Under the pieces are notes generated by a model. It did no database searches and was not told the origin of the DNA. It was given only the letters and a program-made list of their open reading frames with translations. A stretch of DNA of 32,000 nt, from positions 6,341 through 38,340 of the forward strand of contig JABDFA010000011.1 in the NCBI GenBank assembly GCA_013286795.1, written 5' to 3'. Of the stretch, positions 6,281 through 25,226 are shown one piece after another. Origin of the DNA: Candidatus Babelota bacterium. GTDB lineage: Bacteria; Babelota; Babeliae; Babelales; JABDEC01. A program made the translations under genes and the position numbers. Each line of letters opens with the position of its first letter. The first letter of the stretch is position 1.

Positions 6281-6444
6281 TGCTCGTATGGTTCGACGGG
6301 CTCACCACGAGCGCGAGGAAAATTCTCTGGATCCGCTCGTCCCGATGCTTCGACAAGCTCAGCATGACTGGAGTTTTTATTACTATCCCCGGCCATCCTG
6401 AATGTAGCGCGTAGCGCGAAATCGAAGGACGAGGGATACGAGCA
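6281..6444. repeat. GC-rich modular palindromic repeat, locus R1
   Basis: Bounded by 9-bp inverted termini tgctcgtat (6281-6289) / atacgagca (6436-6444). It contains module E tcaccacgagcgcgagg (6302-6318) and module D gatgcttcgacaagctcagcatga (6344-6367, identical 24/24 to 14793-14816). It also contains module C ggccatcctga...cgaaatcgaaggac (6391-6430). It is much more GC-rich than its surroundings. Confidence 0.85.
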
Positions 6445-6465
6445 CTTATTAATATAATCTTCTAG

Positions 6466-7134
6466 CTAAAGAATCACACAACATCTTTTTTTTATTTTAT
6501 GATTTTCACGATTTATAGTAAAAGTTCGAACCGGTAAACTCTCTACATATTCTATTTTTTCTAACATGTCAGTTGATAATGGCACGTTACTTCTTATAGT
6601 TCTTATCATATCTTTCATCAAGTCACCTACTTCATTAAATGCAGCTATTCTTTCTACATCATATTTATTTTTAATTTTTTTATTAATATCTGCACCGGAT
6701 TCTAATAATAATCTAACTACAGCAAATCTATGTTGATTGACAGCTAATGCAAGAGGAAAACATCCTTTGAAAAATTTTTCATCCCATTCTGCATTAACAT
6801 CTACACCTAGAGAAATAGCTGTTTTAACCAGATCCAAATTGTTATCGAGAATTCCCTGTTCAAGAATTTTAAGTAATGCCTCTTTTTCTTCATTAGATTG
6901 GCCGATATAAGCATAAACTATTTCAGATAAATCCTGAGCAGGGCAAACATTATTTTCATCAAAAAATCCTTGAATCTTGTTTTTTGCAGAAAGCTTCTTG
7001 AATGATTCGACAACATCTTCTTGTGAATTAAGTTCGCTTTCTATTTTTTCGTCACTAAAATCATAATAATCTAGGTTCATACAATTAGTTTTGGAAAATA
7101 TCACAAGTAATGCGAATATTTTAATTATTTTCAT
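6466..7134 (-). CDS. Secreted ankyrin-repeat protein with C-terminal polybasic CaaX box (CVIL)
   Basis: Leader MKIIKIFALLVIFSKTNC. Ankyrin consensus appears in GCFPLALAVNQHRFAVVRLLLESGADINKK and the preceding repeat. The C-terminus is HKIKKRCCVIL-stop (CVIL at 6469-6480). The start overlaps the uvrB stop by 14 nt. Confidence 0.8.
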   Translation of the reverse strand: MKIIKIFALLVIFSKTNCMNLDYYDFSDEKIESELNSQEDVVESFKKLSAKNKIQGFFDENNVCPAQDLSEIVYAYIGQSNEEKEALLKILEQGILDNNLDLVKTAISLGVDVNAEWDEKFFKGCFPLALAVNQHRFAVVRLLLESGADINKKIKNKYDVERIAAFNEVGDLMKDMIRTIRSNVPLSTDMLEKIEYVESLPVRTFTINRENHKIKKRCCVIL

Positions 7135-9085: not shown

Positions 9086-9173
9086 AATATTAAATTATAA
9101 ATCATTTAAACTAAAAACACAAATCGCAACAACAAGAGCTTTATCGAGATCTGTAAATTTCTATCTGAAACAA

Positions 9174-9911
9174 TTATCTTATTGGTTTAATACAATTTCT
9201 AAAACATTTACATATAAAATGGGAACACTTTTTTTCTCTTTTTGGAGTGTTTTCTTGATTAAAACTTTTTTGTTTTTCACGTTTTAATTCACTGATGTTT
9301 TGATCCAATTGAAGTTTAAAATCTCTTAAATTTTTGGTAAATTCTCCCACATAACTATCCACTATGTCGCTGAATTGTTCATCTGTTAATCTAGAATTAT
9401 TCTCAGAATCAATAGATTCTAAAATATGTCTAATTCTGCCTGGCATCGAATTAGAAGCAAAAGTGAAAAGGTTATCCTTTTTAAATTGTTCTATATCAGC
9501 TACTGCTAGATCCTTCTCTAGGTTTCTTAAAAAGTTACTTGCTTCAAATTCTAGTCGAATCTTAACAGATCCTACTAGATTTCTTAAAATAGGTTGCTCT
9601 TCTTGTGTCTTAGAATCTTCTGAAGGCTCGAATGTTTCATCTCCTGAGACATATACAAAATCATCTTCCTCTAATTGCATTGAGAAGATATTGAAGCTTG
9701 TAACAAAACAAAAAAATAGAACATATCTCTTGCAAAACCTAAAAATTTGTTTTATTCCGTTCGCCCTGAGTATCGCACGTAGTGCGATGTATCGAAGGGT
9801 GAATAAAAAATTATGTTCATGGTTCGATACGTTTGCTTCGCAAACACTCACCACGAACGGGCTCTCAAATAGAGTTATATTAGGTTTTGAAAGAAGCCTA
9901 ATTTGTCTCAT
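9174..9911 (-). CDS. Hypothetical protein, probably secreted; 5' end remodelled by repeat R2 and true start uncertain
   Basis: The ORF is open from the ATG at 9911, but the first ~50 codons are repeat-derived (PFVVSVCEANVSNHE ... LRANG). A leader-like KRYVLFFCFVTSFNIFS|MQLEEDD follows with no ATG of its own. An in-frame ATA (IKQIFRF...) sits where a start would be expected. The C-terminus carries a Cys-basic cluster, KKCSHFICKCFRNCIKPIR. Confidence 0.5.
   Translation of the reverse strand: MRQIRLLSKPNITLFESPFVVSVCEANVSNHEHNFLFTLRYIALRAILRANGIKQIFRFCKRYVLFFCFVTSFNIFSMQLEEDDFVYVSGDETFEPSEDSKTQEEQPILRNLVGSVKIRLEFEASNFLRNLEKDLAVADIEQFKKDNLFTFASNSMPGRIRHILESIDSENNSRLTDEQFSDIVDSYVGEFTKNLRDFKLQLDQNISELKREKQKSFNQENTPKREKKCSHFICKCFRNCIKPIR
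9757..9861. repeat. GC-rich modular palindromic repeat, locus R2 (module B + module A, inverted relative to R5)
   Basis: Module B: ccgttcgccctgagtatcgcacgtagtgcgatgtatcgaagggtga (9757-9802). A 12-nt AT spacer follows. Module A: gttcatggttcgatacgtttgcttcgcaaacactcaccacgaacgg (9815-9860). Module A is near-identical to 17641-17688. Confidence 0.85.
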
Positions 9912-9918
9912 AGCCAGC

Positions 9919-10428
9919 TCAACAGTATGGAAAACAACATTTTGATTTTTCTACAACATCACTAATTAATTTTTGGACACATTCTCTAAAAAATTTCTCT
10001 TGATCCTGAAGTAAGTCTTCAATTGTTGCTCCCGATAATATTTTTTCATTATAGATCAAAGCAAGCCTGCTTAAATTCAATTTTTTAATAGAATTAATTT
10101 TGTTGGCTATTTTTCTTTTAGTCCAGGGCATAACACGTAAGTTTTCAGATTCTGTTGCAATTATATGATCAAAACTCTCAGTTAAATGTTTAATAAAGTT
10201 ATCACGCGCAGCACTTCTAGCCTCTTCTCTTATAGCTTTAACACTAATACTATTTCTTGGAGGTAGTGGTGGCTTTTGTTGTAATACTACTACAGGATGA
10301 CCTTCAGTTTGATATCCAGGTTGCTGATCAGGAGCACTAGGTCTTGAACTTAAATTATCTCGATAATATTGATCAAATGCACACATCTTGCATACAAATA
10401 ACAGGGGTAAAACTAAGAGCTTTTTCAT
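9919..10428 (-). CDS. Small secreted hypothetical protein (Pro-rich N-terminal region, C-terminal Cys cluster)
   Basis: AGGAG RBS upstream of the ATG at 10428 and leader MKKLLVLPLLFVCKMCA. It contains KPPLPPR (10255-10275) and ends SKCCFPYC. The helical region (KKLNLSRLA...ATIEDLLQDQEKFFRE) resembles the 10503..11126 product (RELNLSQSFA...GTLDALIFEAERKFRD). Confidence 0.6.
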   Translation of the reverse strand: MKKLLVLPLLFVCKMCAFDQYYRDNLSSRPSAPDQQPGYQTEGHPVVVLQQKPPLPPRNSISVKAIREEARSAARDNFIKHLTESFDHIIATESENLRVMPWTKRKIANKINSIKKLNLSRLALIYNEKILSGATIEDLLQDQEKFFRECVQKLISDVVEKSKCCFPYC

Positions 10429-10502
10429 TATAACTCCTAAAAAAATTTAACTACACTCAAGCAATCTAGCAAAAAAAATATATTTCTTACCAGCTTTTTT
10501 AC

Positions 10503-11126
10503 TCATAATTCTAATTCATCAGCAAAAGTTAAAGTAATATCTTCATCTGCTTCATATTCTACTACTTCGTTTTTATCATCTTTTTTTCTACATTTATAGC
10601 ATAAGAACCATTTCTTAAGTTTATCTTTGAAAAGATTTATATTTAATCTATCTTGGTTTCTAATCAATTCTTCAACTGAATCTTCAGCTAGACTAAAAAG
10701 AGTATCCCTAAACTTTCTTTCTGCTTCAAATATTAATGCATCAAGTGTTCCTAGTTGAGCAAAACTCTGTGACAAATTTAATTCTCTCAATATTAAATCT
10801 TTTTTTATTTTGGCACACCTTTTCATATCATTAACAGAAAGGGCTCCTAAATTTTTAATCTTTCTGTTTGCCTCAGGCAAATCCCAACTCTTAACATTCT
10901 TAATGACTGTCCTACTTTCAACCCCAGGAATAACAAACTCTAGTTTAATATTTGCAGCTGGATTCCCTTTTAATCTACTAACATAAATTTTGAAATTAGA
11001 AATATTATATTTAAAACTGTCTGAAAGATAGGATATAGTTTTCTGGGTGTCTGATTTTTTGATATTTTTATCCATGCAATTAACGCTAGACACCAGAAAA
11101 AATAAATTAATTAAGATTTTACCCAT
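10503..11126 (-). CDS. Small secreted hypothetical protein (paralog-like to 9919..10428)
   Basis: AAGGGAGA RBS upstream of the ATG at 11126 and leader MGKILINLFFLVSSVNC. It has a Cys-basic cluster KKWFLCYKCRKKDDK followed by an acidic tail. Confidence 0.6.
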   Translation of the reverse strand: MGKILINLFFLVSSVNCMDKNIKKSDTQKTISYLSDSFKYNISNFKIYVSRLKGNPAANIKLEFVIPGVESRTVIKNVKSWDLPEANRKIKNLGALSVNDMKRCAKIKKDLILRELNLSQSFAQLGTLDALIFEAERKFRDTLFSLAEDSVEELIRNQDRLNINLFKDKLKKWFLCYKCRKKDDKNEVVEYEADEDITLTFADELEL

Positions 11127-11136
11127 TTATTCTCCC

Positions 11137-12279
11137 TTAAACGGAATTTGCCAATATCCTATTATAAAAATCGATTAAATTCAAAGTTAAATTTTTAGAA
11201 TCATAACTTTTTGATTTTAACCATGCTTGTTTTTGCATCTGTAAACAAATATCAGGATAATTTTTTAAATAATTAATTTTCAAAACCATTTCTTCTACAG
11301 AATCAACCAGAAAGCCATTAATATTATTATCTACAATATCGCAACTCCCTGCAGCATTTAGAGCAATAACAGGACAACTCCCAGCCATAGCTTCAGCCAA
11401 AACTAAACCCTGAGTTTCAGTTATAGAAGCAAAGATAAATAGATCAGATTTTTTGTAAATAGATGCCAATAAATCTTTAGAAGGTTTTTCTATAAAAATT
11501 ACTCTTTCTTTAGATAATTTAAGTTTTTCATATGCGTAAAATTTTAAAAAATTAAGCTCTGAACCATAACCCAATAATCTAAAAATGAACTCTTCTTGTT
11601 TTAGTTTTGCAAATACATCCAACAAAAATAATATATTTTTTTCTTTAGTAAAACGACTTACAGTTAAAAGCTCAAATATTTTATTTTTTTTGAAAATAGG
11701 TTCAGATGAAAAATATAATGGTAAGATACCACTTGGCACAACTATCGAGTTTTGAAGATTTAAGCAATTAGCGGTTTTTGCTATTGATAAACTCGGAAAA
11801 ATAACTCCTTGAACTTGCTTACAATAAGATTTTACTAACTTGCTGATGATAGGTTTTGTAAAAATTTCTGGTAAAGGTATATAATGTGCATAGTTTTCAT
11901 ATTGCGTATGATAAGTAAAAACAATAGGTATTTGCATTTTTTTACTTACGTTTAATGCGTTTGCACCCAATAAAAATGGGTGTTGAGAATGAATTATATC
12001 AGGTCGTTCTTTTTTTATAATTTCGGACATTTCAAATTCTGGCCAAAAGGGAACAGCCATAGAATTCTGTTTATAAGTAAATTTTATGGGGCAACTCATA
12101 CGAAAAATATTATCACTTTCAGGGAACTTTTTGGTAAGAAAATCTAAGGTAATAATAAAAGGTATATGGTTTTGCTCTTTTAAGCTTTGCAAAAAAGAGT
12201 TTATAGAGCTTACTACTCCCCCTGAATAAGGAGTATAATTATTAGTTATTATGGCTATTTTTAATGATTTTTTGCTCAT
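11137..12279 (-). CDS. Glycosyltransferase family 4 (GT-B fold)
   Basis: 380 aa. The N-terminus IAIITNNYTPYSGGV is typical of GT4. The EX7E motif ETQGLVLAEAMAGSCPVIA lies in the C-terminal domain. Confidence 0.85.
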   Translation of the reverse strand: MSKKSLKIAIITNNYTPYSGGVVSSINSFLQSLKEQNHIPFIITLDFLTKKFPESDNIFRMSCPIKFTYKQNSMAVPFWPEFEMSEIIKKERPDIIHSQHPFLLGANALNVSKKMQIPIVFTYHTQYENYAHYIPLPEIFTKPIISKLVKSYCKQVQGVIFPSLSIAKTANCLNLQNSIVVPSGILPLYFSSEPIFKKNKIFELLTVSRFTKEKNILFLLDVFAKLKQEEFIFRLLGYGSELNFLKFYAYEKLKLSKERVIFIEKPSKDLLASIYKKSDLFIFASITETQGLVLAEAMAGSCPVIALNAAGSCDIVDNNINGFLVDSVEEMVLKINYLKNYPDICLQMQKQAWLKSKSYDSKNLTLNLIDFYNRILANSV

Positions 12280-12310
12280 AACGATTTATTTTAAAATATT
12301 TAATCTGAAT

Positions 12311-12339
12311 TTGCCAGTTGATAAATAAAATGATATTAT
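12311..12339 (+). promoter_or_regulatory. Candidate sigma-70 promoter of rpsA-ndk
   Basis: TTGCCA (12311-12316), 17-nt spacer ending in TGa (extended -10), TATTAT (12334-12339). An AGGAG RBS at 12427-12431 lies 9 nt before the ATG at 12441. Confidence 0.4.
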
Positions 12340-12440
12340 AAACTAAGTATAGTATATGTTTAACCCCCATAAACTTCTGCTTACCAAATTCTAAGTTAGC
12401 AGATTTTATTTATCTCAAATATCTTTAGGAGCTTTTTTCA

Positions 12441-14231
12441 ATGGCAAAAGAAGTACTAAGTCCATCAAAATATGCAAAAGTATATCTTCCTGAACTGGAC
12501 ATGCCCCAATTAAGTGGTGAGCAAAAACAAGAACTGCAAGATCTATATCAAGAAACCCTCAGCAAATTACAACCGGGTCAATTAACCATAGGAAAAATTT
12601 TAGCTGTAGATCAACAAGGTGTATTAGTCGACATTCAATACAAATCAAATGGACTAATACCAAGATATGAATTCACTGAACATGAATTAAAAGATCTAAC
12701 ACCAGGCGCTAATATAGACGTAATGTTAGATGAACTTGAAAATATTGATGGCAACGTAGTTTTGTCTTATGAAAAAGCAAAAAATCTAAAGGCTTGGGAT
12801 AGAATTACAAAATTATTTGAAGAAAATAAGCCTGTTGAAGGTGTCGTTACCCATACAGTAAAAGGTGGACTAAATGTTGATATAGGGCTTCCGGCTTTTT
12901 TACCTGGATCGCAAGTTGATGTACAGAAAGTTACAAACTTTGAAGGCCTAATAGGACAACATATAGTTGCCAACGTTATAAAAATAAATAAAAAACGTGG
13001 CAATGTAATAATTTCTAGACGCAAGTTCCTATCAGAACAGCAACAAGAAGCTCGCAAACATGTTATGAGCAATATAACAGAAGCTCAAATAATTCAAGGA
13101 ACTGTAAAGAATATAACAAACTATGGGGCTTTTGTAGATATAGGCGGATTAGACGGTCTATTACACATAACCGATATGACATGGGGCAGGATATCCCATC
13201 CAAGCGAAATATTAAAAATTGGGGATAAAATAACAGTAAAAGTTCTATCCATTGATAAGGATAATAATAAAATATCTCTGGGTATGAAACAATTAACTGA
13301 CAATCCATGGCATGTTTTACCTGAATCGATACAAGTTGGGTCCAAAGTTAAGGGTAAAATATCAAGTATTACTGATTATGGTTTATTTATAGAAATACAA
13401 AAAGGTATAGAAGGTTTAGTACATATTTCTGAAGTATCTTGGATTGATAGAATTAAAGATTTAACAAAGCATTTTAAATTAGGCGAAGAAGTGGAAGCCT
13501 TAGTTGTATCTTTAGATAAAGATAACAGAAGAATGTCTTTAAGCATAAAACAACTTGTTGATAATCCATGGAAATCTATTAGTGAAAAATTCAAGGTTGG
13601 CGAAAAAATAAAAGGAAAGATTACCAATATTGCTGATTTTGGTATATTTATTCAATTATTACCTGGAGTCGATGGCCTTGCTCACGTTTCAGATTTGTCT
13701 TGGACAGATCATATTAGTCATCCAGCAGATGTTTATACAAAAGGCCAAGAAGTTGAAGCTGTTATATTATCAATAGATGAAGCCAACAAAAAAGTTTCTC
13801 TTGGTGTTAAACAAATGACAAATGATCCATGGGAAGAAATAGAAGAAAAATATCCTGTAGGGTCTTTAGTTGAAGGTGAAGTTTCCAAAATTACGAATTT
13901 TGGTGCCTTTGTAAAATTACCTACCAAGATTGAAGGCTTGGTGCATGTATCTGAAGTAGACAAAGAAGGCAAAAAACTTGAAGAAATACTTCAAGTTGGC
14001 CAAAAACGTCAATTTAGAGTTATTAATGCGAATAAAAATGAACGCAAATTAGGTTTAAGCTTAAAGCTAGAAGTTGATGAAAAAGCACAAGAAGAAGCAA
14101 GGGCTAAAAAAGCAGCTGCAGCTTCTAAGAAGAAAAAAGAAGCTCCAGTTCAAGAAATGAAAAAAACAGAAAAAGCCAAGTCCGTTCTTCAATTAGAACT
14201 TGAAAAACATGCTAAAAAAAATAAAGAATAA
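12441..14231 (+). CDS. rpsA: 30S ribosomal protein S1
   Basis: 596 aa with six tandem S1 domains (recurring G..V.G.V..I..FGAFV.L..G.EGL.H.S motifs) and a Lys-rich C-terminal tail. Confidence 0.95.
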   Translation: MAKEVLSPSKYAKVYLPELDMPQLSGEQKQELQDLYQETLSKLQPGQLTIGKILAVDQQGVLVDIQYKSNGLIPRYEFTEHELKDLTPGANIDVMLDELENIDGNVVLSYEKAKNLKAWDRITKLFEENKPVEGVVTHTVKGGLNVDIGLPAFLPGSQVDVQKVTNFEGLIGQHIVANVIKINKKRGNVIISRRKFLSEQQQEARKHVMSNITEAQIIQGTVKNITNYGAFVDIGGLDGLLHITDMTWGRISHPSEILKIGDKITVKVLSIDKDNNKISLGMKQLTDNPWHVLPESIQVGSKVKGKISSITDYGLFIEIQKGIEGLVHISEVSWIDRIKDLTKHFKLGEEVEALVVSLDKDNRRMSLSIKQLVDNPWKSISEKFKVGEKIKGKITNIADFGIFIQLLPGVDGLAHVSDLSWTDHISHPADVYTKGQEVEAVILSIDEANKKVSLGVKQMTNDPWEEIEEKYPVGSLVEGEVSKITNFGAFVKLPTKIEGLVHVSEVDKEGKKLEEILQVGQKRQFRVINANKNERKLGLSLKLEVDEKAQEEARAKKAAAASKKKKEAPVQEMKKTEKAKSVLQLELEKHAKKNKE

Positions 14232-14237
14232 TAAACT

Positions 14238-14669
14238 ATGAAAATAATAGAAAAAACATTTGCTATTATAAAGCCTGATGCTGTTAAGGCAAAAAATAGT
14301 GGTAAGATTATAGATATTATAGAAAAAAATGGTTTTGAAATTCTGGACATGAAGAAAATAAATTTAACTCAATCTAAAGCAGAAAAGTTTTATGAAGAGC
14401 ATAAAGAACGTTCTTTCTTTCCAGAATTAGTACAATTCATGACATCTGGACCTATAATCATTATGGCATTAGCTAAGACAGATGCTGTAAATGATTGGCG
14501 GAACTTAATGGGTGTTACTGATCCTAAAAAAGCTGCTCACGGTACAATCCGCCAATTATTTGGCAAAGGTATCGGTGAAAATGCTGTACATGGCTCTGAT
14601 TCTGCTAGTTCTGCTGTTAGAGAATTAAATCTCTTCTTTCCAGAATTAGACCAAATCCAGTCATCCTGA
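14238..14669 (+). CDS. ndk: Nucleoside diphosphate kinase
   Basis: 143 aa. It has TFAIIKPDAV near the N-terminus and the active-site motif NAVHGSDS. It starts 6 nt after the rpsA stop. Its last 4 codons and the TGA stop lie in repeat R3. Confidence 0.95.
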   Translation: MKIIEKTFAIIKPDAVKAKNSGKIIDIIEKNGFEILDMKKINLTQSKAEKFYEEHKERSFFPELVQFMTSGPIIIMALAKTDAVNDWRNLMGVTDPKKAAHGTIRQLFGKGIGENAVHGSDSASSAVRELNLFFPELDQIQSS

Positions 14670-14890
14670 GGGAAGCATCCTTCAACAAGCTCAGGATAAA
14701 CTCCGTGCGAAGTCGAAGGACATAATTAGCCAATAGAAAGGTGGTCATAATTGTAATAATTATGACCACCTTAATTTCCTCGCGCTCGTGGTGATGCTTC
14801 GACAAGCTCAGCATGATCGGACTTTTTCTCTCCTACCAGTCATCCTGAGTGAAGTGCGCAGCACGAAATCGAAGGACAAACCATACGAGC
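14657..14890. repeat. GC-rich modular palindromic repeat, composite locus R3
   Basis: In order: module C copy (14657-14721), a 15-bp hairpin (14738-14772), and inverted module E cctcgcgctcgtggtga (14778-14794, the reverse complement of 6302-6318). Then module D (14793-14816), a second module C (14837-14877), and the shared right end atacgagc (14883-14890). Confidence 0.85.
14738..14772 (+). terminator. Perfect 15-bp hairpin inside R3, possible rpsA-ndk terminator
   Basis: Stem aaggtggtcataatt (14738-14752), loop gtaat, stem aattatgaccacctt (14758-14772). Only a weak T tract (aatttcc) follows. Confidence 0.35.
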
Positions 14891-14917
14891 TAATTAAGAT
14901 CTAATCCTATAAATCTC

Positions 14918-15616
14918 ATGAACACTAAATCAACACTCTACATAACGTTAGTTTTAATATCTATTTTTTCAGTAAATAAACCTATGGGTATAGAATCTCA
15001 AAAAATTAAAAAATGTGCCCGTAGAAAATTGAATAGAAAGTTGCGTAAAGCAATAATTAATAATAATTTAAAAAAAATAGAAACACTTTTGGAAAAAGGC
15101 GCTAATCCTAATATTAAAATAAGGCATATGATCACGCCTCTGGTTTATGCTGTATATGAAATTTCAAGTCCAAAAATGGTTGAACTGTTATTAAAATATA
15201 AGGTAGACGTTAATGATTATTATAAAAGTAATGAATATAAAGCTATACATTTAGCTATTAGAAGCTGCAACATTTGTATTACTAATTTATTAATTGATGC
15301 AAAAGCAGATATCAATATCCAAGACTGTTGTGGCAATGCCAGCTTACATTTTTTAAATATAAAACATAGGCCTGAAACATCCCTTAAACTACTTCCATTA
15401 TTACTTAACCATGGTGGAGATGTAAATATAAAAAACTTTGACAATAAATCTTTTTTAGATTTAGCACAAGAACAAAACAAAAAAGAGATTTTTGACATTA
15501 TCAAAGAACACCAGAAATTAATTATAAAAAAAATAGCTGAAGCAACTAAATATTGTCTGCCAACTGTATTAGAAAATATGATTGGCGAATATATTATATT
15601 TTTGGAAAATAAATGA
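14918..15616 (+). CDS. Secreted ankyrin-repeat protein, array member 1
   Basis: Leader MNTKSTLYITLVLISIFSVNKP and ankyrin repeats (TPLVYAV...MVELLLKYKVDVN; AIHLAI...LLIDAKADINIQD). The C-terminal tail is CLPTVLENMIGEYIIF. The stop overlaps the next start (ATGA). Confidence 0.85.
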   Translation: MNTKSTLYITLVLISIFSVNKPMGIESQKIKKCARRKLNRKLRKAIINNNLKKIETLLEKGANPNIKIRHMITPLVYAVYEISSPKMVELLLKYKVDVNDYYKSNEYKAIHLAIRSCNICITNLLIDAKADINIQDCCGNASLHFLNIKHRPETSLKLLPLLLNHGGDVNIKNFDNKSFLDLAQEQNKKEIFDIIKEHQKLIIKKIAEATKYCLPTVLENMIGEYIIFLENK

Positions 15617-16332
15617 ACAAATTAATTTTATACGTAATAATAACTTTATTATCAATCTCTCTATCTAACTATGCAATGATTCAAGAGTTAAACGAAAAAC
15701 TTCGTAAATCTGTAGATCTACAAGATCTAGAATTAATGGAAAAAACATTAAAAAATGGGGCTGATCCGAACCATATGGTAAAATATTGGACAAACGAAAC
15801 TTTAAAATATTGGCATGGAGATAAACCAATATTACATTATGCTATATTACAAAACTGCGATTCAAAAGTTATTGAACTTTTATTAAAGTATGGAGCAAAT
15901 ATAAATATTACAGAACGCAATAATTGGAATGCCCTATTTTGGGCTATAGAGAGAAATAATTTAATTATAGCGCAATTATTAATTAAACAAGGAATAGATT
16001 TAAATCTACAAGGTTTAAACAATGATACATGCCTTCACAGAATAATTCAATGCAAGTTCCCCTTTTATAATGACCCGCACAACACACAAAAAACTCGTGT
16101 TCTAAAAATCATTAATTTATTACTTCAATTCGGAGCTGATATAAATATAGAAAATAACCAAAATAAAACCTTTTTAGATTTAGTAAAACAATCCCAATAT
16201 AAGGATATACTCAAGGTTGTTAAAGAATGGCAAGAAATAACAAACAAAAAAATATTAGAAGAAACTAGCCCCTACTTGCTCCCTGTATTAGGAAATATAG
16301 TTAGCGAATATGTTACTGGATTAACGATATAA
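15613..16332 (+). CDS. Secreted ankyrin-repeat protein, array member 2
   Basis: Leader MNKLILYVIITLLSISLSNYA. The central region is about 60% identical to member 3 (ILHYAILQNCDSKVIELLLKYGANINIT...). The tail is EWQEITNKKILEETSPYLLPVLGNIVSEYVTG. Confidence 0.88.
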   Translation: MNKLILYVIITLLSISLSNYAMIQELNEKLRKSVDLQDLELMEKTLKNGADPNHMVKYWTNETLKYWHGDKPILHYAILQNCDSKVIELLLKYGANINITERNNWNALFWAIERNNLIIAQLLIKQGIDLNLQGLNNDTCLHRIIQCKFPFYNDPHNTQKTRVLKIINLLLQFGADINIENNQNKTFLDLVKQSQYKDILKVVKEWQEITNKKILEETSPYLLPVLGNIVSEYVTGLTI

Positions 16333-16337
16333 AACTT

Positions 16338-17066
16338 ATGAATAATAAATCAACTTTATCAATAATAATTTCTTTATCAATTTCTCTTGCAAATAATTCC
16401 ATGGATGAAAGGCCTAAAAAAAGAATCTGCTTAGAAAGCTATAGATACGAATATAAAAAATTTAAAGAAGCAATAGATACAGGAAATTTGGAATTAATGG
16501 AAAAACTAATACAAGAAGGAGTTGATCCTAATTGCATGATAGAATATCTGAGTGATAGTAGGTTTGCTTATTTCAACACTGGAGACATGCCAGCATTGCA
16601 TTACTCTATACTAAATGATTGTGACTCAAAAGTTATTGAACTTCTATTAAAATATGTCACGGATATAAATATTACGGACGATAATCATCGGAATGCACTA
16701 TTTTGTGCAGTAGAGAAAGGTAATTTAATTATTGCTCATTTGCTCATTAAACAGGGAATAGATTTTAATTTAAAAGATAATAAAGGTGATACATGTTTGT
16801 GTAAATCATATTACCGTTTTGTTTTTAATCAAAATGGCATCAAAGAAATTCGCTCTCTAAATATAATTCATTTATTAATCTATTCAGGCGCTGATATAAA
16901 CATAAAAGACAGCGATGATTACAGTTTCTTAGATTTAGCAAAAAGGAGTTGGGATGGAAGGATACTTGCAATAATTTTAGACTGGAAAAATTCCATTACT
17001 AAAGGAATTAGAACTTACATGCCGGCTGATTTAGGAAATATAGTTATCAAATATGTTACAGGTTAA
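16338..17066 (+). CDS. Secreted ankyrin-repeat protein, array member 3
   Basis: Leader MNNKSTLSIIISLSISLANNS followed by MDERPKKRICLE. Ankyrin repeats are present, and the tail is YMPADLGNIVIKYVTG. Confidence 0.88.
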   Translation: MNNKSTLSIIISLSISLANNSMDERPKKRICLESYRYEYKKFKEAIDTGNLELMEKLIQEGVDPNCMIEYLSDSRFAYFNTGDMPALHYSILNDCDSKVIELLLKYVTDINITDDNHRNALFCAVEKGNLIIAHLLIKQGIDFNLKDNKGDTCLCKSYYRFVFNQNGIKEIRSLNIIHLLIYSGADINIKDSDDYSFLDLAKRSWDGRILAIILDWKNSITKGIRTYMPADLGNIVIKYVTG

Positions 17067-17080
17067 ATAAAATTAAATTT

Positions 17081-17629
17081 ATGAACGCAAAATTAAACTT
17101 ATTTCTAGTAACATTTTCTCTATCTACGTTTCTTGCAAATAATTCTATGGATGAAAGACCTAAAAAAAGAATTTGTTTAGAAGAAGAATATAGAAAGAGA
17201 AAATCAACATATAATTGGAGGCATGATGTACGTATTAAAGACTTCGAATTCATAGAAGAAGCGTTACGAAACGGAGCAGATCCCAATTTTGAAATAGATT
17301 TTTTTGAAGGTAGCAATCTTTCCTATACAGGTTTACATTATGTAATTAAATGCTATAAATATCTTAGAGAAAAGGAAAAATCCCAACAAGCCTTAAATAT
17401 TATTAGATTATTACTTAAATCTGGTGCTGATATAAATTTAGAAGACACTCTAAAAAAAAGAACTTTTTTAGAACTAGCAAAAGAATCTGATGATGAGGAT
17501 ATACTTAAAATTATTAAAGAATGGCAAGAAGAAACAAACAAAAAAATATTAGAAGAAACTAGTCCCTACATGCCACCTGTATTGGGAAATATAGTTAGTG
17601 AATACGTTACAGGTAAATTAGAACAATAA
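17081..17629 (+). CDS. Secreted ankyrin-repeat protein, array member 4 (short mosaic copy)
   Basis: The 5' end (leader + MDERPKKRICLE) matches member 3. The 3' end (KEWQEETNKKILEETSPYMPPVLGNIVSEYVTG) matches member 2 almost nucleotide for nucleotide. The central ankyrin repeats are reduced. Confidence 0.85.
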   Translation: MNAKLNLFLVTFSLSTFLANNSMDERPKKRICLEEEYRKRKSTYNWRHDVRIKDFEFIEEALRNGADPNFEIDFFEGSNLSYTGLHYVIKCYKYLREKEKSQQALNIIRLLLKSGADINLEDTLKKRTFLELAKESDDEDILKIIKEWQEETNKKILEETSPYMPPVLGNIVSEYVTGKLEQ

Positions 17630-17640
17630 GCAATAATTGC

Positions 17641-17688
17641 GTTCATGGATTCGATACGTTTGCTTCGCAAACACTCACCACGAACGGG
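17641..17688. repeat. GC-rich palindromic repeat, locus R4 (single module A)
   Basis: gttcatggattcgatacgtttgcttcgcaaacactcaccacgaacggg. It differs from 9815-9860 by a 1-nt indel. Confidence 0.85.
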
Positions 17689-17724
17689 TTTTAAAAATTT
17701 TAGATTTTCAAGTTCGCGTTAGAA

Positions 17725-17754
17725 AGGGCAATAACCAAAATAAGTTATTGCCCT
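17725..17754. terminator. Bidirectional hairpin terminator between the ankyrin array and the DUF378 gene
   Basis: 11-bp perfect stem agggcaataac (17725-17735) / gttattgccct (17744-17754) with an 8-nt loop. T-rich sequence follows on the + strand. It lies between convergent genes. Confidence 0.55.
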
Positions 17755-17778
17755 CGTTATTTTCAGAGTTATTCTAGT

Positions 17779-17976: not shown

Positions 17977-18067
17977 AAAAACTATCTCCTTAGTTTGTTA
18001 ACAGAAGTTTAAACAGTTTACATTTGTGATTTTATTAATTTAATTTCCAAAATTCAATATTTATTTT

Positions 18068-18520: not shown

Positions 18521-18523
18521 AAT

Positions 18524-19090: not shown

Positions 19091-19197
19091 AGCAACCACC
19101 TTTAAAATAAAAAATTAAAATTTATATAATTATAAATTATAGTTTAAAATAGGCCAAAAGCAAGCCCTTAAAACCCTTTTAACAATTAAGGAACCAC

Positions 19198-20427
19198 TTG
19201 GATAGATTAAAATTAGTTGATCCAGAGATATTTGAAGTAATAAAAAACGAAACAAACCGTCAAGAAAATGAAATAAATTTAATTGCATCAGAAAATTATG
19301 TAGATAAAGCCGTACTAGAAGTAACTGGGTCAATTTTAACAAATAAATATGCTGAAGGATACCCTGGCAAAAGATATTATAGTGGCTGTCAATTTGTTGA
19401 TCAAGCTGAACTCTTGGCTATAGAAAGATGTAAATCAATTTTCAAAGCTGAGCATGTAAATGTTCAAGCTCACTCAGGTTCTCAGGCAAATATGGCTGTT
19501 TATTTTGCCATATTACAACCCGGAGATACAATAATGGGAATGAGGCTATCTGAAGGTGGTCATCTTACACATGGTCATAATGTAAGTTTTTCAGGAAAAT
19601 TATTTAAATCAGTTTCTTATGGAGTAAACCCTTCAACTGAACAGCTGGATTATGATGAAATACAAAGATTGGCAGAAGAACATAGGCCAAAACTTATAAT
19701 TTGTGGCGCATCAGCATACTCAAAGATTATAGATTTCCAAAGATTCTCAAAAATAGCAAAAAGTGTAGGTGCATATTTAATGGCCGATATAGCCCATATT
19801 GCAGGGCTAATAGCAACAGAATTACACCCTAGTCCAATTAATCATGCTGATTTTGTAACAAGTACTACACATAAAACTTTGCGCGGTCCACGAGGTGGGT
19901 TAGTTATGTGTAAAAAAGAATTTGCATCTATTCTTGATAAAGCTATAATGCCTGGAATGCAAGGAGGTCCATTTATGCATGTAATTGCTGCAAAAGCTGT
20001 TGCTTTTAAATTAGCACAATCACAAAATTTCTTTGATTATCAAAAGCAGATTATTAAAAATGCAAAAAAAATGTGTTCAACTTTGCAGAACCTTGGTTAT
20101 AGAATTGTTTCAGGAGGAACAGATAACCATCTTTTTATTATAGATTTAAGATCTAAAGGTTTAAATGGTAAAATTGCTGAAGAAATTCTGCATAATACTG
20201 GAATTTATGTTAACAGAAACACTATTCCATTTGATCCTGAAAAACCCGCCATCACTAGTGGGATACGAATTGGCACACCTGCAATTACTACTAGAGGAAT
20301 GAAAGAAGAACAAGCTGAACTTATTGCAAATTTAATTAATGAGACTTTAGAAAATAAAGACGATCGAAAAAAACTTGAAACCATTAAACAAAAAATAAAA
20401 GATTTATGTAAGCAATTTCCAATTTAA
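19198..20427 (+). CDS. glyA: Serine hydroxymethyltransferase
   Basis: 409 aa with LIASEN, the PLP-lysine motif [12 protein letters not shown], and a full-length N-terminus. It uses a TTG start at 19198 with AAGGA 5 nt upstream. Confidence 0.97.
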
Positions 20428-20479
20428 ATAAATTATGCTAGTTAAATTTTTTTTTAAACTTAACTAGCATAATTTATTT
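20426..20479. terminator. 20-bp perfect inverted repeat between convergent glyA and the 20483 gene (bidirectional terminator candidate)
   Basis: aaataaattatgctagttaa (20426-20445) / ttaactagcataatttattt (20460-20479) with a T-rich 14-nt loop. It overlaps the glyA stop codon. Confidence 0.55.
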
Positions 20480-20482
20480 AAA

Positions 20483-20881
20483 TTAAACTACAAATTCTTC
20501 TGTCTCAACAGATTTTGAATTTCTAAAATTTTTCAAAAGATTTTCAAACTTTTGATTTATATTTCCTGTAACTTCATGAATTTTAGCTATTAATTCTTCT
20601 GAAGACAAAGAATCAATTTCATTTTTAATTTCTTTTAATTTATTTTTTATTTCATCTTTTAACCTTAATAAGTTATTTTTGGTTGATAGCACCAGGTTAG
20701 ATTTTTCAATATCTTCAGTAATACCTTCTATTTTGTCTCCAACCCATTTCACTGAATTTTTAAGTTCTTGTTTAAGTTTCTCATAACCCCAATCTTCATA
20801 ATCACCGTTGCAATAAGAGTTGTTACTTGAAAATAGAACTAAAAACATAGAACCTATTAATAATTTTTGTAAACTTTTCAT
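20483..20881 (-). CDS. Small secreted coiled-coil hypothetical protein
   Basis: The ORF track starts at 20911. I prefer the ATG at 20881 (MKSLQKLLIGSMFLVLFSS) with GGAGG 6 nt upstream. The product is K/E/N-rich and helical. Confidence 0.6.
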   Translation of the reverse strand: MKSLQKLLIGSMFLVLFSSNNSYCNGDYEDWGYEKLKQELKNSVKWVGDKIEGITEDIEKSNLVLSTKNNLLRLKDEIKNKLKEIKNEIDSLSSEELIAKIHEVTGNINQKFENLLKNFRNSKSVETEEFVV

Positions 20882-20920
20882 AATTACCTCCGCTTTTTTT
20901 AAATAACACATATATTAAAA

Positions 20921-21424: not shown

Positions 21425-21507
21425 AATACCTCCTCTTTTAAATTCCATCTATAAATTGATTTTACCATATTCAAAAGACTAAAATCAACTATAATTTTCA
21501 ATCTGAA

Positions 21508-21999: not shown

Positions 22000-22046
22000 A
22001 ATATACTTTTATATAATATTTTTTAATTTTTATCTATCTTGTATAT

Positions 22047-23360
22047 ATGACAAAACAAGTTTTTAAAAATTTTATTATATATTCCTCAGGGGCAATAGTT
22101 TCAAGAGGCATAACTGCTACAATTACCTTATCTGCAACCAATTTTTTAAGTACGTCAGAATTTGGCCTGCTTTCTCTATTAAATACTTTTATTGCTATAG
22201 TTCCAATATTTTTAAATTTAGGATTAAGACAAGTTTTTGGATTAGATTTTTTTCATACAGATAATACCGGAAGAAGAAAAATAATAGAAGATATAATCTC
22301 AATATATCTATTAATAGCTATACCAATTTTAATTTTATTAATCAGTTTTATCCCTAAATTCAATAAACTATTATTTTTAAATCAACTTGATCCAAAAATA
22401 ATTTTAATAGCACTAGTAATATGTTTTATGCATTTTTTTACAGAACTGCTCTTTCAAGTTTTTCGTTACCAAAGTAAATCCTTACATTTGTCTTTGACGC
22501 AAATATTAATGGGATCCACTAATGCACTTTGTGCAATAATATTAATAAAATTTTTTAATTTTAAAATCATGGGTTTAATCCTATCTAATTTGACTAGCAT
22601 GCTACTAATTTTTATTTATGGATTATGGTTATATTTTAAAAAAATTGGTTACTTAAAACCAAAATTAATAAACAAAAATATTATAAAATATTATCTATTA
22701 ACAGGTTTTCCATTTATACCAAGTATAATGTTTTCTTGGATATTATCATTTGCAGATCGTTGGATCCTAGCTCAATATACAAGCTTAGAGCAAGTAGGAA
22801 TATATTCTTTGGCAGACTCATTTGGACAACTTTTTCAAATGTTTATACTCTACCCTCTAAGTGGCTCTTATATCCCATATATTTTTGAAACATTTAGTAA
22901 AAATAAAGAAAATATTTTAGACATAGATAAGTTGAATCAAAAAAACATGTGGCTATCAATGTTTATAATGTTCATAATTGTAATCATTGGTTTTGCATTC
23001 TCAAAAAAAATATTATTTTGGATAATACCAGCAAAGTTCCATGAAGCAATAAATTATATTTTGATTATATTGATGAGCCAGATAATATTCATGGGTTCCT
23101 ATTTTGCAACCTGCTACTTACAATTTTTTAAAAGAGTATATCTTCTTGTAAGTTTTACAATTATTTCTGCAATTTTAAACAGTATCTTAAATATTTTATT
23201 GGTGCCAAAATTTGGCATATACGGCTGCCTTTTTTCTACTTTTATTGCATACGTCTTTTATTTGGCAATAATTTTAATTGTTACGAAAAGTGTAAAAGAC
23301 AAAGCGATTAAACTTCTTCCAAAACCTAATATGATTTTATTTAGAACCCGTTCGTGGTGA
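22047..23360 (+). CDS. Polysaccharide/oligosaccharide flippase-like polytopic membrane protein (Wzx/MOP-type, tentative)
   Basis: 437 aa and hydrophobic throughout (about 12 or more TM segments). It sits next to glycosyltransferases. The last 4 codons (TRSW) and the TGA stop come from repeat R5. The family call rests on topology and context only. Confidence 0.65.
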   Translation: MTKQVFKNFIIYSSGAIVSRGITATITLSATNFLSTSEFGLLSLLNTFIAIVPIFLNLGLRQVFGLDFFHTDNTGRRKIIEDIISIYLLIAIPILILLISFIPKFNKLLFLNQLDPKIILIALVICFMHFFTELLFQVFRYQSKSLHLSLTQILMGSTNALCAIILIKFFNFKIMGLILSNLTSMLLIFIYGLWLYFKKIGYLKPKLINKNIIKYYLLTGFPFIPSIMFSWILSFADRWILAQYTSLEQVGIYSLADSFGQLFQMFILYPLSGSYIPYIFETFSKNKENILDIDKLNQKNMWLSMFIMFIIVIIGFAFSKKILFWIIPAKFHEAINYILIILMSQIIFMGSYFATCYLQFFKRVYLLVSFTIISAILNSILNILLVPKFGIYGCLFSTFIAYVFYLAIILIVTKSVKDKAIKLLPKPNMILFRTRSW

Positions 23361-23475
23361 GTGTTCTACGAAGCTTGCGTAGTAGAACGTATCGAATCCA
23401 TGAACGCAAATTTATATTCACCCTTCGATACATCCGTCTTCGCCGGAGGCTTCGACGGATACTCAGGGCGAACGG
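23347..23475. repeat. GC-rich modular palindromic repeat, locus R5 (module A + module B)
   Basis: Module A: cccgttcgtggtgagtgttctacgaagcttgcgtagtagaacgtatcgaatccatgaacgc (23347-23407). An AT spacer follows. Module B: tcacccttcgatacatccgtcttcgccggaggcttcgacggatactcagggcgaacgg (23418-23475). This is the same two-module layout as R2 in the opposite orientation. Confidence 0.85.
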
Positions 23476-23509
23476 AGAGAGGGTCAACTTGTAAATTTAA
23501 TAAATTGTT

Positions 23510-24355
23510 TCACAAATTATCGTATCTTTGCCGAGACTTAATCAATTGTGTAATTTTCCTTTGTTTTTCAGAATTAACTTTGAAATCATTAAAGTTCGTT
23601 TGTACATTATAAACATATAAAATTTCATCAACAAACTTTATATGCCCACGAGCCATTTCAAGCATAGGAAGCATTTCTGCCACATCACCAGCTACATCAA
23701 TAAAATCACCATCTAACATTAAATCAGATTTTTTGATTTTTTTAAATAGCCATGCATAATATGTTCTTAATGCGCTGGTGTACCATTGATCCATTGACCT
23801 GAAATCATAATCTTGTTCAAGAAATTTACACTGTCCCTCAACACCAGATGGCCAACGAATAAATTGACCATAAGTTAACCAAACATCCTCAGTAGAATAA
23901 GTAGAATTTATTATCTGAAAAACATAATCTTGAGCTAACCAATCATCTCCATCTAAAATGATAACTATTTCTTCATCATTTGCTAAATGGGAACCTAAAT
24001 ATCTGTTTGCAGTAGCCCCACTTCGTTTTTCATTTCTTATCAAGGTTAGTTTAGATTTATAGCCTAAACTATCCACATAACCCTGAACATAAAAAGATGT
24101 ATCATCCTGTGAAGCATCATCAATATATATAATTCTATAATTTGAATATTTTTGATTAAAAATAGAATCTAAATTTTTTTTATACCAGAGAGCATTATTA
24201 TAAGATGGTATTACTACAACTATTGGTTTTTCATAAAGATTATTAATTATTTTATTCTTTCTAAAAAAGCTTCTCAACTTTGCTATATTTAGTTTTATTG
24301 CAAATTTCATTCCAAACCATTTTTCTAACTTTTTTATCATAACTTTTAAAATCAT
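23510..24355 (-). CDS. Glycosyltransferase family 2 (tandem paralog, downstream copy)
   Basis: GT-A signature VVVIPSYNNALWYKKNLDSIFNQKYSNYRIIYIDDASQDDT and DXD motif LDGDDWL. The N-terminal MILKVMIKKLEKWF is homologous to MVEKFVIKLIYKFF of the upstream copy, which supports the ATG at 24355. Confidence 0.85.
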   Translation of the reverse strand: MILKVMIKKLEKWFGMKFAIKLNIAKLRSFFRKNKIINNLYEKPIVVVIPSYNNALWYKKNLDSIFNQKYSNYRIIYIDDASQDDTSFYVQGYVDSLGYKSKLTLIRNEKRSGATANRYLGSHLANDEEIVIILDGDDWLAQDYVFQIINSTYSTEDVWLTYGQFIRWPSGVEGQCKFLEQDYDFRSMDQWYTSALRTYYAWLFKKIKKSDLMLDGDFIDVAGDVAEMLPMLEMARGHIKFVDEILYVYNVQTNFNDFKVNSEKQRKITQLIKSRQRYDNL

Positions 24356-25226
24356 TTATAGGAGAATCTATATTTCTTAATAACACAATTTCATCAATTG
24401 AAGTAACTTTATTTTGAGCCATCTCAAGTATAGGGTAAAAAATTGCTGCATCACCACATAAAGGAAAAAATTCCCCTAATGCTGTTGAACTTATACTTTC
24501 TTTATTTATCTTTTTAAAAAGAGCTGCATAATATGAGCGTAGTCCAGAAAAAACCCACGGGTATAATCTTATTTTATTTAATCTTAAAATAAACCTAGGT
24601 ACCGGCTGAAAAAATTTCTCAATTTCAAGTCTTTCAGCCAAATCTTCTGGGTAATTCTTATAATTTCCATAAACTACCCATGCGCCTGTTATTTGATAAT
24701 AATTATTAAATAAACTCAAAACCTGAGAACCATTTAAATAATCATCCCCATCAAGCTCTAAAATTATTCTATTATCATCTAGGCTATTAATCACAGAATA
24801 TAGATTTTCGACCTTTTTTTTACGAGTATCATTTAAGATATATTTTACTTTCTTTTGAGGATCATAATCTTCAAGAAATTTTTGCACAATCTCTGAAGTC
24901 CCATCCTTTGAACAATCATCTATATAGATTACATCAAAATTTGAATAATTTTGACCCAAGACAGATTCTAAATTTTTTTTACAGTATTTTATATTGTTAT
25001 AAGAAGTGATAACGACGGTTATGGGTAATTCTTTTAAATTATTATTTGGAAACCCGTTCGTGGTGCCTGCCCGTCGAAGCTCTAAGAGCGAAGTCGGGAG
25101 TGTTCTACGAAGCTTTCTTGTCCGGCGTAGCTTTAGCGAAGACGGAGCGAAGTAGAACGTATCGAACCATGAACTCTTGAACTTAAAAAACTTATAAATT
25201 AACTTGATTACAAATTTCTCTACCAT
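24261..25226 (-). CDS. Glycosyltransferase family 2 (tandem paralog, upstream copy, with repeat R6 translated in frame)
   Basis: TVVITSYNNIKYCKKNLESVLGQNYSNFDVIYIDDCSKDGT and LDGDDYL. There is no ATG between the repeat and the catalytic domain. The conserved N-terminal peptide lies upstream of the repeat in the same frame. Confidence 0.8.
   Translation of the reverse strand: MVEKFVIKLIYKFFKFKSSWFDTFYFAPSSLKLRRTRKLRRTLPTSLLELRRAGTTNGFPNNNLKELPITVVITSYNNIKYCKKNLESVLGQNYSNFDVIYIDDCSKDGTSEIVQKFLEDYDPQKKVKYILNDTRKKKVENLYSVINSLDDNRIILELDGDDYLNGSQVLSLFNNYYQITGAWVVYGNYKNYPEDLAERLEIEKFFQPVPRFILRLNKIRLYPWVFSGLRSYYAALFKKINKESISSTALGEFFPLCGDAAIFYPILEMAQNKVTSIDEIVLLRNIDSPINDFKSYDKKVRKMVWNEICNKTKYSKVEKLF
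25053..25174. repeat. GC-rich palindromic repeat, locus R6 (module A carrying two nested GC-rich insertions)
   Basis: It shares cccgttcgtggtg ... gtgttctacgaagc ... aagtagaacgtatcgaaccatgaac with R5 module A. Two extra hairpin-like inserts are present at about 25066-25099 and about 25114-25149. The second contains gcgaagacgga, the inverse of tccgtcttcgc in R5 module B. Confidence 0.85.

Follow-up and report, generated by a model that had tools for sequence, protein, structure and literature searches.

Here we describe a family of GC-rich palindromic repeats that occupies six loci, R1 to R6, in a 32-kb stretch (30.7% G+C; hereafter the window) of a Candidatus Babelota contig. These loci are probably small, non-autonomous mobile repeats that form hairpins, of the same kind as repetitive extragenic palindromic sequences (REPs), their hairpin-forming doublets (REPINs) and miniature inverted-repeat transposable elements, or MITEs. 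What the family conserves is a one-strand hairpin whose internal boxes are fixed, and the loci are discrete segments, gained or lost recently, that differ between close relatives. An earlier, sequence-only reading of the window had placed GC-rich modules, designated A to E, at six loci, and inspection of the sequence bore out both the modules and their positions. With 100 dinucleotide-preserving shuffles as the chance level, CCGTTCGTGGTGAG was found at nine sites in the window with up to three mismatches (0.23 expected), GCTTCGACAAGCTCAGC at three (0.01 expected), GTATCGAACCATGAAC at two (0.09 expected) and the gapped core pattern at three (0.00 expected). This gives 12 hairpin modules over six loci in 32 kb, and no seventh locus was detected in the window by the repeat finder, the mismatch searches or the core detector.

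The module sequences named in that reading are real, but they are not separate modules: A to D are one archetype, and E is the 5' arm of an A variant. On the strand carrying TGAG, all modules read stem-TGAG-X-TCGAA-stem', where X is a 4-nt loop in module D (CTTG) and in R1a (CCCG), and an inner hairpin in A, B and C. The reverse complement of module B is module A with the three core-adjacent pairs changed from TGG/CCA to CCC/GGG; module C has TCC/GGA arms and module D has ATGC/GCAT arms. Module E consists of GCTCGTGG and GCGAGG, and the 3' arm of its A variant is CCATACGAGC. An E-type arm pair surrounds D and C in the right-hand element of R3, and R1b has the same architecture with compensatory arms (GCTCGTCCC/GGGATACGAGC). 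R4 is a single unit, R2 and R5 are inverted doublets bounded by AT-rich terminal inverted repeats, and R1, R3 and R6 hold units nested in one another's loops; the repeat finder groups R2, R4, R5 and R6 together and R1 with R3. Several details of the first description stand as given: the inner stems differ yet stay complementary (GTTTGC/GCAAAC in R2 and R4, GTTCTAC/GTAGAAC in R5 and R6), R6 is module A enclosing two extra hairpins, and R1 has 9-bp inverted termini (TGCTCGTAT/ATACGAGCA).

Within the core, TGAG and CGAA can stack as U-A, G.A, A.G and G-C. Several inner loops are GNA triloops (GCGAAGC, CGTAG, GCGCAGC), which form unusually stable DNA mini-hairpins. The pair between the G of CGTTCG and the T of TGAAC is a wobble, and because of it the TGAG strand folds better than its complement. 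In DNA folds of three elements the TGAG strand reached z = -3.3, -2.7 and -4.6, against -0.8, -1.3 and -1.8 for the complement. The corresponding RNA folds were -19.4 (R4, z = -5.2), -23.3 and -30.2 kcal/mol against -12.8 (R4), -15.8 and -20.7 kcal/mol, so that the TGAG strand is the more stable by 7-10 kcal/mol.

The arms and inner stems covary strongly in approximately 270 independent copies from other genomes. A general search pattern, which fixes only GTTCG, TGAG, TCGAA and YGAA and leaves three arm pairs free, was run on species-representative genomes. Among the matches listed, the free three-base arms are fully paired in 114 of 139, where about 5% would be by chance. The arm types in this set include TGG/CCA (40), CCC/GGG (23), TGC/GCA (14), TCC/GGA (12) and TGC/GTA (8), the loops include CCTG (41) and CTTG (30), and the wobble position holds T in 100 matches and C in the other 39. 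A second pattern described the extended junction (CGTTCG NNN TGAG TRT ... GTA TCGAA); the 135 matches listed for it contain at least 73 distinct inner stems, with CCC/GGG (49), TCC/GGA (31) and TGG/CCA (26) arms. We then aligned 85 distinct extended copies, loop-trimmed and ungapped. In this alignment 240 cells have changed on both sides; column shuffles gave 75 ± 10, with none of 500 reaching the observed number, and controls with slid partners gave 21-58. The inner stems are 86-99% paired, each pair showing 11-49 double changes, and wobbles are kept as wobbles (G6.U48 in 73/85 copies, G15.U36 in 63/85). Covariation this far above the shuffles bears out the selection on structure that had been proposed from the window alone.

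The repeats are not only local duplications, with at least 139 and at least 135 matches listed for the two patterns in other collections. The species-representative collection comprises 596 Gb, in which some tens of chance matches are expected to the general pattern; it yielded at least 120 stretches, at least 78 loci of which are clear members, while unpaired matches with odd gaps (e.g., in Streptomyces and the Bradyrhizobium fliM region) are probably due to chance. By record title the core occurs in at least 10 phyla, in addition to viral contigs and plasmids. Carriers include alpha-, beta- and gamma-Pseudomonadota, Chloroflexota, Nitrospirota, Myxococcota, Thermodesulfobacteriota and other "Deltaproteobacteria", Methylomirabilota, Fibrobacterota, Tectomicrobia, Binatia and Campylobacterota. 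The three arm types of the window, TGG/CCA (A), CCC/GGG (B) and TCC/GGA (C), are the same three found in many of these other phyla. In metagenomes the extended pattern matched at least 116 loci (median locus G+C 37% among the matches listed), and the same junction is present in metagenome-assembled genomes (MAGs) of Gallionella and alphaproteobacteria (L088, L094, L114). Many pairs of copies on opposite strands lie 50-150 nt apart in the viral, genome and metagenome matches.

In viral contigs (IMG/VR, L002-L026), the general pattern matched 25 loci on contigs of 43-71% G+C (e.g., L023 368-398, L024 9754-9786). Two of these adjoin tail-tube or tail-chaperone genes, and phages may carry or spread the family. 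A 33-nt minimal consensus matches Comamonas plasmids (17 places in one record) and Moraxella osloensis plasmids, at unannotated, intergenic positions; BLAST of the A+B composite against plasmids gave no match. In a Nitrospirales MAG, minimal A-type hairpins form a tandem array (L061 897-1396) with at least six members, four of them with repeated 13-nt spacers between, and beside it are a C-type copy (GTCATTCTGAGCGAAGCGAAGAATC) and a nested copy. With A-type copies next to a C-type copy, the sub-families travel together.

Recent gain or loss is seen where filled and empty sites could be compared. Through a UvrB match (P0082, 98% identical) we reached two syntenic contigs, L266 and L267, from a close relative whose proteins are 86-99% identical to those of the window across glyA-efp-nusB...ndk-rpsA...uvrB, with UvrB and ribosomal protein S1 each at 98%. 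R2 is absent from both contigs and the flanks are otherwise near-identical: the empty site reads ATGAAACAAG joined directly to TTCTATTTTT, and the window adds exactly 180 bases (9723-9902). At the left element of R3, about 77 nt stand in place of 14 nt in the relative. R6 is missing from a more distant ortholog, P0002 (68% identical by BLASTP, 75% in alignment), from the paralog in the window and from six other homologues, and a DNA alignment with L147 supports this comparison. Reciprocally, the relative bears a minimal-type composite or doublet 3' of glyA, very like the left part of R1, where the window holds only an AT-rich palindrome and no GC-rich copy. At R1, R3-right, R4 and R5 the relative differs in gene content or its contigs end short. 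The R1-equivalent locus of the relative (L266 12751-13110) contains a DUF433 gene and a different GC-rich hairpin, TCTCTGAGCGAGCTTTTTAAGCGAGTCGAAGAGA, and near nusB the relative has a HicB-like gene that the window does not; both intergenic spots look like turnover hot spots.

The elements sit at gene ends or in frame within genes and change the termini of proteins. R2 and R6 are not intergenic. R2 comprises 60 codons with no stop, in frame after codon 3 of the gene at 9174-9911(-), in the signal-peptide region, so that the product is 245 residues here and 185 in the relative. R6 lies in frame and antisense in the N-terminal region of a family 2 glycosyltransferase (GT2) gene, with a net gain of 96 nt or 32 residues. 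Each of these two segments is free of stops in just two of six frames, one of which is the frame used. R3-left supplies the last ndk residues and the stop; the 14 nt that it replaced included the original stop, and the product is 143 residues here compared with 138 in the relative. The ndk stop (14667-14669) is the TGA of TGAG, as is the stop (23358-23360) of the flippase open reading frame (ORF) at 22047-23360, which ends in R5. In one frame the TGAG core serves as a ready-made stop.

The sequence-only reading likened the translated motifs to GC-rich repeat peptides that appear as spurious ORFs in other bacterial genomes. Similar peptides (PFVVSLSNHE, VILSEAKNL, FDRLTTNG) do arise on translating the minimal copies of the Nitrospirales contig. 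An exhaustive search of a library of 1.8 billion proteins found a single predicted protein with an A+B-type peptide. A word-indexed protein search with the 60-residue R2 peptide gave no candidate, and Pfam and NCBIfam assigned no family to the translated repeat peptides.

The positions of the individual elements are collected in Table 1, and at three loci they revise the extents first proposed. R2 (9757-9861) and R5 (23347-23475) were placed correctly, but R2 was drawn too small and R5 began too late, since the R2 insert is 180 nt and the homology of R5 to R2 starts near 23296. R3 (14657-14890) does contain the repeats, but as two elements (about 14650-14727, and 14779-14890) that flank a native AT-rich, terminator-like palindrome (14731-14773) also present in the relative.

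Table 1 Repeat elements of the window, with the strand that each is assigned to.
Element	Position	Strand	Description
R1a	6283..6313	-	Minimal hairpin GCTCGTGG-TGAG-CCCG-TCGAA-CCAT(AC)GAGC (sequence, core detector)
R1b	6335..6443	+	Composite hairpin; outer arms GCTCGTCCC / GGGAT(AC)GAGC
R2	9723..9902	-	Complete 180-nt insertion in gene 9174-9911(-)
R3-left	14650..14727	+	C-type hairpin (TCC-TGAG...TCGAA-GGA); its loop contains a minimal copy in reverse
R3-right	14779..14890	+	Composite hairpin; arms GCTCGTGG / CCAT(AC)GAGC
R4	17640..17688	-	Lone extended module A hairpin between convergent genes
R5	23296..23476	+	R2 composite in opposite orientation (alignment with the reverse complement of R2)
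R6	25053..25174	+	Module A with two nested hairpins; antisense in GT2 gene 24261-25226(-)

The composite of R1a also occurs, un-nested, at another locus of the relative (L266 473-543). In R1b, the arms enclose module D (6344-6367, core on the minus strand) and module C (6392-6430, plus strand); they differ from the R3-right arms by compensatory changes (TCCC/GGGA in place of GTGG/CCAT), and DNA folding pairs the two ends. R3-right likewise encloses D (14792-14815, core on the minus strand) and C (14839-14878, plus strand), shares the direct repeat D13 with R1, and sits at a rearrangement boundary relative to L266, at an extra ankyrin paralog. The order within R2 is an AT-rich arm, the module A hairpin (9815-9860, minus strand), a 13-nt spacer, the module B hairpin (9757-9806, plus strand) and a second AT-rich arm. 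Its ends are imperfect inverted repeats of about 45 nt, each composed of an AT-rich arm (CTTKCAAAACCTAAWAT...) and module A or B, and the entire insert folds back on itself (z = -7.9). In R5, an AT-rich left arm (23296-23346) is followed by module A (23347-23407, plus strand), a spacer and module B (23414-23476, minus strand); inverted repeats I1, I4, I12, I17 and I18 and the folds are further evidence for this element.

The reading of these loci as non-autonomous elements of the MITE, REP or Rickettsia palindromic element (RPE) type is supported by their structure, their mobility and the absence of a nearby transposase. In the window, no transposase came up in Pfam searches of unannotated ORFs or in tblastn searches with IS200 TnpA and with RayT of E. 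coli. The elements would be recognized by their structure together with the TGAG and TCGAA boxes, and an enzyme whose gene lies elsewhere would copy or move them in trans in the form of single-stranded hairpins. Single-stranded DNA is favoured over RNA because the orientation of copies does not follow transcription. For copies between tandem genes, the general pattern gives 25 with the TGAG strand sense and 26 with it antisense, and single extended copies give 11 sense to 6 antisense (p = 0.33), both among the matches listed and with crude gene calls. Entry may be preferred at the loops or centers of existing palindromes and at AT-rich gene ends. A preference for loops and palindromes would account for nesting, which is seen in R1, R3 and R6 and in unrelated genomes (L079, L110, L144, L073, L080), and for copy-specific outer stems; palindromic flanks of at least 4 bp surround 36% of the minimal copies listed, compared with 5% in re-paired controls. 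Within genes, only in-frame, stop-free insertions would survive. Any benefit, e.g., protection of mRNA 3' ends, would be secondary.

Random orientation, the lack of a skew bias, the antisense position of R6 in a gene and the lack of terminator character support a selfish rather than a cis-regulatory nature. A crude test among the matches listed found no local GC-skew bias (49/103 and 39/70). Intrinsic terminators are GC-rich stem-loops with a T run directly after them, and the loci are not of this type: the terminator scan selected 17725-17754, 25328-25299, 20429-20476 and only a fragment of R3. The canonical terminator at 17725-17754 is separate from R4. Gene context was convergent in 29 cases and divergent in 13 among the matches listed. 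An excess of convergent over divergent positions is usual for REP-like repeats.

Several observations weigh against a mobile, REP-like family. No mobilizing enzyme was found: tblastn with IS200 TnpA (confirmed as Y1_Tnp) and E. coli RayT (from NC_000913.3) gave no match in 1.7 Mb around approximately 400 copies. No direct target-site duplication is present at R2, where the filled and empty junctions share at most one base, and the comparison with the relative shows no clean duplication at R3-left; R3-left and R6 replace a few bases instead of being clean insertions. The absence of a GC-skew bias is unlike the lagging-strand targeting of IS200/IS605-style elements. REPs normally differ between species, so a core that is almost the same in different phyla, with three or four recurring arm types, is atypical of them; a conserved host function could lie behind it. 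An RNA that binds protein would likewise match the conserved G.U wobbles and the extended junction (helix, 3-nt bulge, tandem G.A, helix). Finally, the counts for the source organism cover 32 kb, plus relatives.

A transposase of the REP-associated tyrosine transposase (RAYT) or IS200-type HUH class is the obvious candidate for the mobilizing enzyme, but it is unsupported here and gains no favour from the skew result; we consider an enzyme that is HUH/RAYT-like or otherwise structure-specific less likely than not. ORF clustering near 145 loci returned ordinary large or housekeeping families and no recurrent neighbour gene family. Among genes flanked by inverted copies there was no transposase; phage tail, P-II, PhoU and TPR proteins were found instead. 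In a bolder version that we consider rather unlikely, the TGAG/TCGAA hairpins would be a pan-bacterial superfamily of at least 10 phyla, phages and plasmids, with three or four arm types, homing into the loops or centers of existing hairpins, one another's included, and moved by non-RAYT machinery that may be a host enzyme of wide conservation. In another version of this idea, mobility would have spread the extended form as a true kink-turn (k-turn)-type RNA module.

The alternative that survives best, though unlikely, is a functional structured RNA, either a k-turn-like hairpin that binds protein or a stabilizer of mRNA 3' ends, maintained by selection for that function, with mobility incidental. 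Conserved wobbles are typical of RNA recognition, and the copies combine conserved G.U wobbles with a tandem G.A and RNA folds of the TGAG strand at z = -5.2 to -5.6. TGAG-TR-[helix]-YGTA-TCGAA can be written as a C helix, a bulge AUC, G.A/A.G and an NC helix; in this drawing the flanking helices covary, while the bulge and GA boxes are fixed by the search pattern itself. The recurrence of the junction in Gallionella and alphaproteobacterial copies, the core kept across phyla and the preference for convergent or tandem over divergent intergenic regions (29 vs 13) would also fit. A functional RNA would not, however, be expected in random orientation to its flanking genes, antisense in a gene as in R6 or in a signal-peptide region as in R2, nor to vary in occupancy among close relatives with no change to compensate. 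Having no C helix, the minimal form is unable to make a k-turn. There is also no Rfam match: searches of Rfam 15 with the repeats, the window and minimal copies returned nothing at the gathering threshold or at E ≤ 10.

Classical MITEs, i.e., internally deleted remnants of DDE-type insertion sequences (ISs) moved by cut-and-paste through their terminal inverted repeats with the hairpins as passengers, are a poorer fit. R2 has the corresponding features, being 180 nt long with imperfect terminal repeats of about 45 nt and folding back as a whole, and R5 is the same composite. But R2 lacks a direct target duplication at its junctions and R3-left replaces 14 nt, the single (R4) and nested modules have no such terminal repeats, the conservation across phyla lies in the hairpin core and not in the AT-rich termini, and a parent IS with CTTKCAAAACCTAA... 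termini was not seen in 1.7 Mb around copies. We consider this explanation very improbable. Least probable is a double-stranded DNA site or cruciform to which a nucleoid, gyrase or recombination protein would bind, an idea put forward for bacterial interspersed mosaic elements (BIMEs) of E. coli, and which spread through this role: the TGAG and TCGAA boxes are kept while the stems vary, and copies occur between genes at gene ends and in clusters or arrays (e.g., L061), but the wobbles and purine-purine core are asymmetric, which argues for a one-strand structure, the complement would have C.A and pyrimidine-pyrimidine mismatches and folds much worse, and coding insertions and strain polymorphism do not suit a required chromosomal site.

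Other candidates were rejected on their features. Integron attC sites read RYYYAAC...GTTRRRY, the reverse of the GTT...AAC order here. In hammerhead ribozymes, UGAG...CGAA resembles the stem II side only, and there is no CUGA box and no three-way junction. A tRNA T-arm mimic would have GTTCGAA, not GTCGAA, and the stems do not fit. A mariner-type MITE would require a TA duplication, which is lacking.

In kind, then, these elements are ordinary small mobile palindromic repeats, and as a variant they are apparently undescribed, structurally distinctive and unusually widespread. The family belongs to the class of REP/REPIN, RPE, QMITE and similar small palindromic repeats, and it falls outside the tag criterion of the published REP superfamilies. 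Like REPs and REPINs, the copies are numerous short, GC-rich, imperfect palindromes that are non-coding, lie mostly at gene ends and occasionally within genes, and form inverted doublets that make a larger hairpin (A+B in R2 and R5, and many metagenome loci). REPs and REPINs are mobilized by RAYT transposases (Bertels and Rainey 2011, PMC3116915; Di Nocera et al. 2013, PMC3733652), whereas no RAYT was seen near the approximately 400 copies, nor flanked by inverted copies. The defining feature of the published REP superfamilies is a GTAG or CGTC tag that is left unpaired (PMC3733652). The copies described here have no such tag at either foot; they start with (C)CGTTCG, mostly paired with YGAACG, and their conserved TGAG and TCGAA boxes are inside the hairpin rather than at its foot. 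The core strings are absent from the text and text supplements of PMC3733652. In CGTC-tagged REPs, among them Rickettsia RPE-4/RPE-6 and Neisseria dRS3, the CGTC tag is terminal, the stems of 8-9 bp begin with AT and the loops measure 4-5 nt (PMC3733652), while the window copies are untagged, appear to differ in sequence and occur in a different host phylum. Unlike species-specific REPs, the core and arm types are found in at least 10 phyla, and copies nest in loops.

The RPEs, reportedly described by Ogata et al. in 2000, are palindromic repeats of AT-rich intracellular bacteria that insert in frame and add peptide segments, and they are not known to have a dedicated transposase. R2 (60 codons) and R6 (net 32 codons) resemble these in lying in frame and leaving the reading frame open. 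The small dispersed repeats (SDR) of Nostoc, reportedly treated by Elhai et al. in 2008, are structured repeats 21-27 nt long, restricted to one cyanobacterial subgroup, that show compensatory changes and form nested mosaics through frequent insertion into copies of their own kind or other repeats. Nesting within copies is shared with our family; the SDR sequences differ and are confined to that subgroup. The term small dispersed repeats also occurs in PMC3116915.

QMITE1 and QMITE2 of the intracellular bacterium Coxiella burnetii are small non-autonomous elements that overlap gene ends (Wachter et al. 2018, PMC5896051), and the window copies similarly donate C-terminal residues and stop codons, sometimes in frame inside ORFs. 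No sequence relation was found, TCGAA and CGTTCG being absent from the main text of PMC5896051, and QMITEs are described as Coxiella elements whereas the window core is pan-bacterial. MRSC-65-2 was recovered from GC-rich intergenic regions of AT-rich genomes and has a long covarying stem, dozens of copies per genome, diverse phyla and inconsistent orientation; in the view of its authors it is selfish and may act as DNA (PMC11109978). It shares the multi-phylum covarying stem, but it is defined by a UYCCGG repeat and not by TGAG/TCGAA, and the TGAG/TCGAA core strings do not occur in one supplementary file of PMC11109978. GC clusters of yeast mitochondria are also GC-rich palindromic mobile islands of several classes in a very AT-rich genome, with occasional gene insertion; they are organellar, unrelated in sequence and have a different proposed target (PMC4478555). 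Searches of open-access full text with core and peptide strings returned nothing relevant, as did a search for literature on Dependentiae repeats; an earlier description in literature outside that scope is possible.

The window encodes UvrB, ribosomal protein S1, Ndk, EF-P, NusB, GlyA, glycosyltransferases, an M3 peptidase and many ankyrin-repeat proteins, and no tRNA. The closest named UvrB homologues (72-77% identity) are all "Candidatus Babeliales" or "Candidatus Dependentiae", as is one named GT2 homologue, which on protein similarity identifies the carrier of the six loci as a Babeliales (Dependentiae) bacterium. A metagenomic short-read contig from the same organism, SRR8433578_871 (L001), carries the window genes at 9919-14669 (window about 9915-14810) and was the sole assembly contig found for the exact S1 protein. 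It begins just past R2 and terminates within R3, as multi-copy repeats fragment short-read assemblies.

Four tandem ankyrin-repeat paralogs (14918-17629; direct repeats D1, D4-D7) correspond to a single copy in L266, the ortholog of the second window paralog (96% identical). This looks like a recent local expansion of the gene family, with R3-right and R4 at its borders. Between glyA and the ORF at 20483-20911 is a near-perfect AT-rich palindrome (20421-20484, 29-nt arms, 97% complementary) that looks like a bidirectional terminator; in the relative, a GC-rich doublet occupies the corresponding place. Two 46-nt stretches (3172-3217 and 25587-25632; 89% identical) fall in low-complexity proteins rich in E, K, Q and A (2089-3966 and 25341-26594), both of which have a hydrophobic N-terminal stretch resembling a signal peptide and the motif QEEKERNE..EQARL. 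The GT2 paralogs at 23510-24355 and 24261-25226, both on the minus strand, overlap as ORFs by 95 nt (24261-24355), and the real start of the downstream gene may be internal to its ORF.

For annotation, these repeats need to be masked and modelled in Dependentiae and many other MAGs, where they break assemblies, alter proteins and create spurious ORFs. The altered proteins are real ones: one gains 60 residues close behind its start codon, a glycosyltransferase gains 32, and ndk and the flippase gene acquire new C-termini and stop codons. That at least 10 phyla share one core implies that it has either spread horizontally over a very wide range or has a partner conserved among its hosts. Filled and empty sites between near-identical genomes are useful for the question of how REP-like elements move without a dedicated transposase. 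Carriers with sequenced isolates include Moraxella osloensis, Comamonas endophytica and Pantoea, and a binding or mobilizing factor could be sought there.

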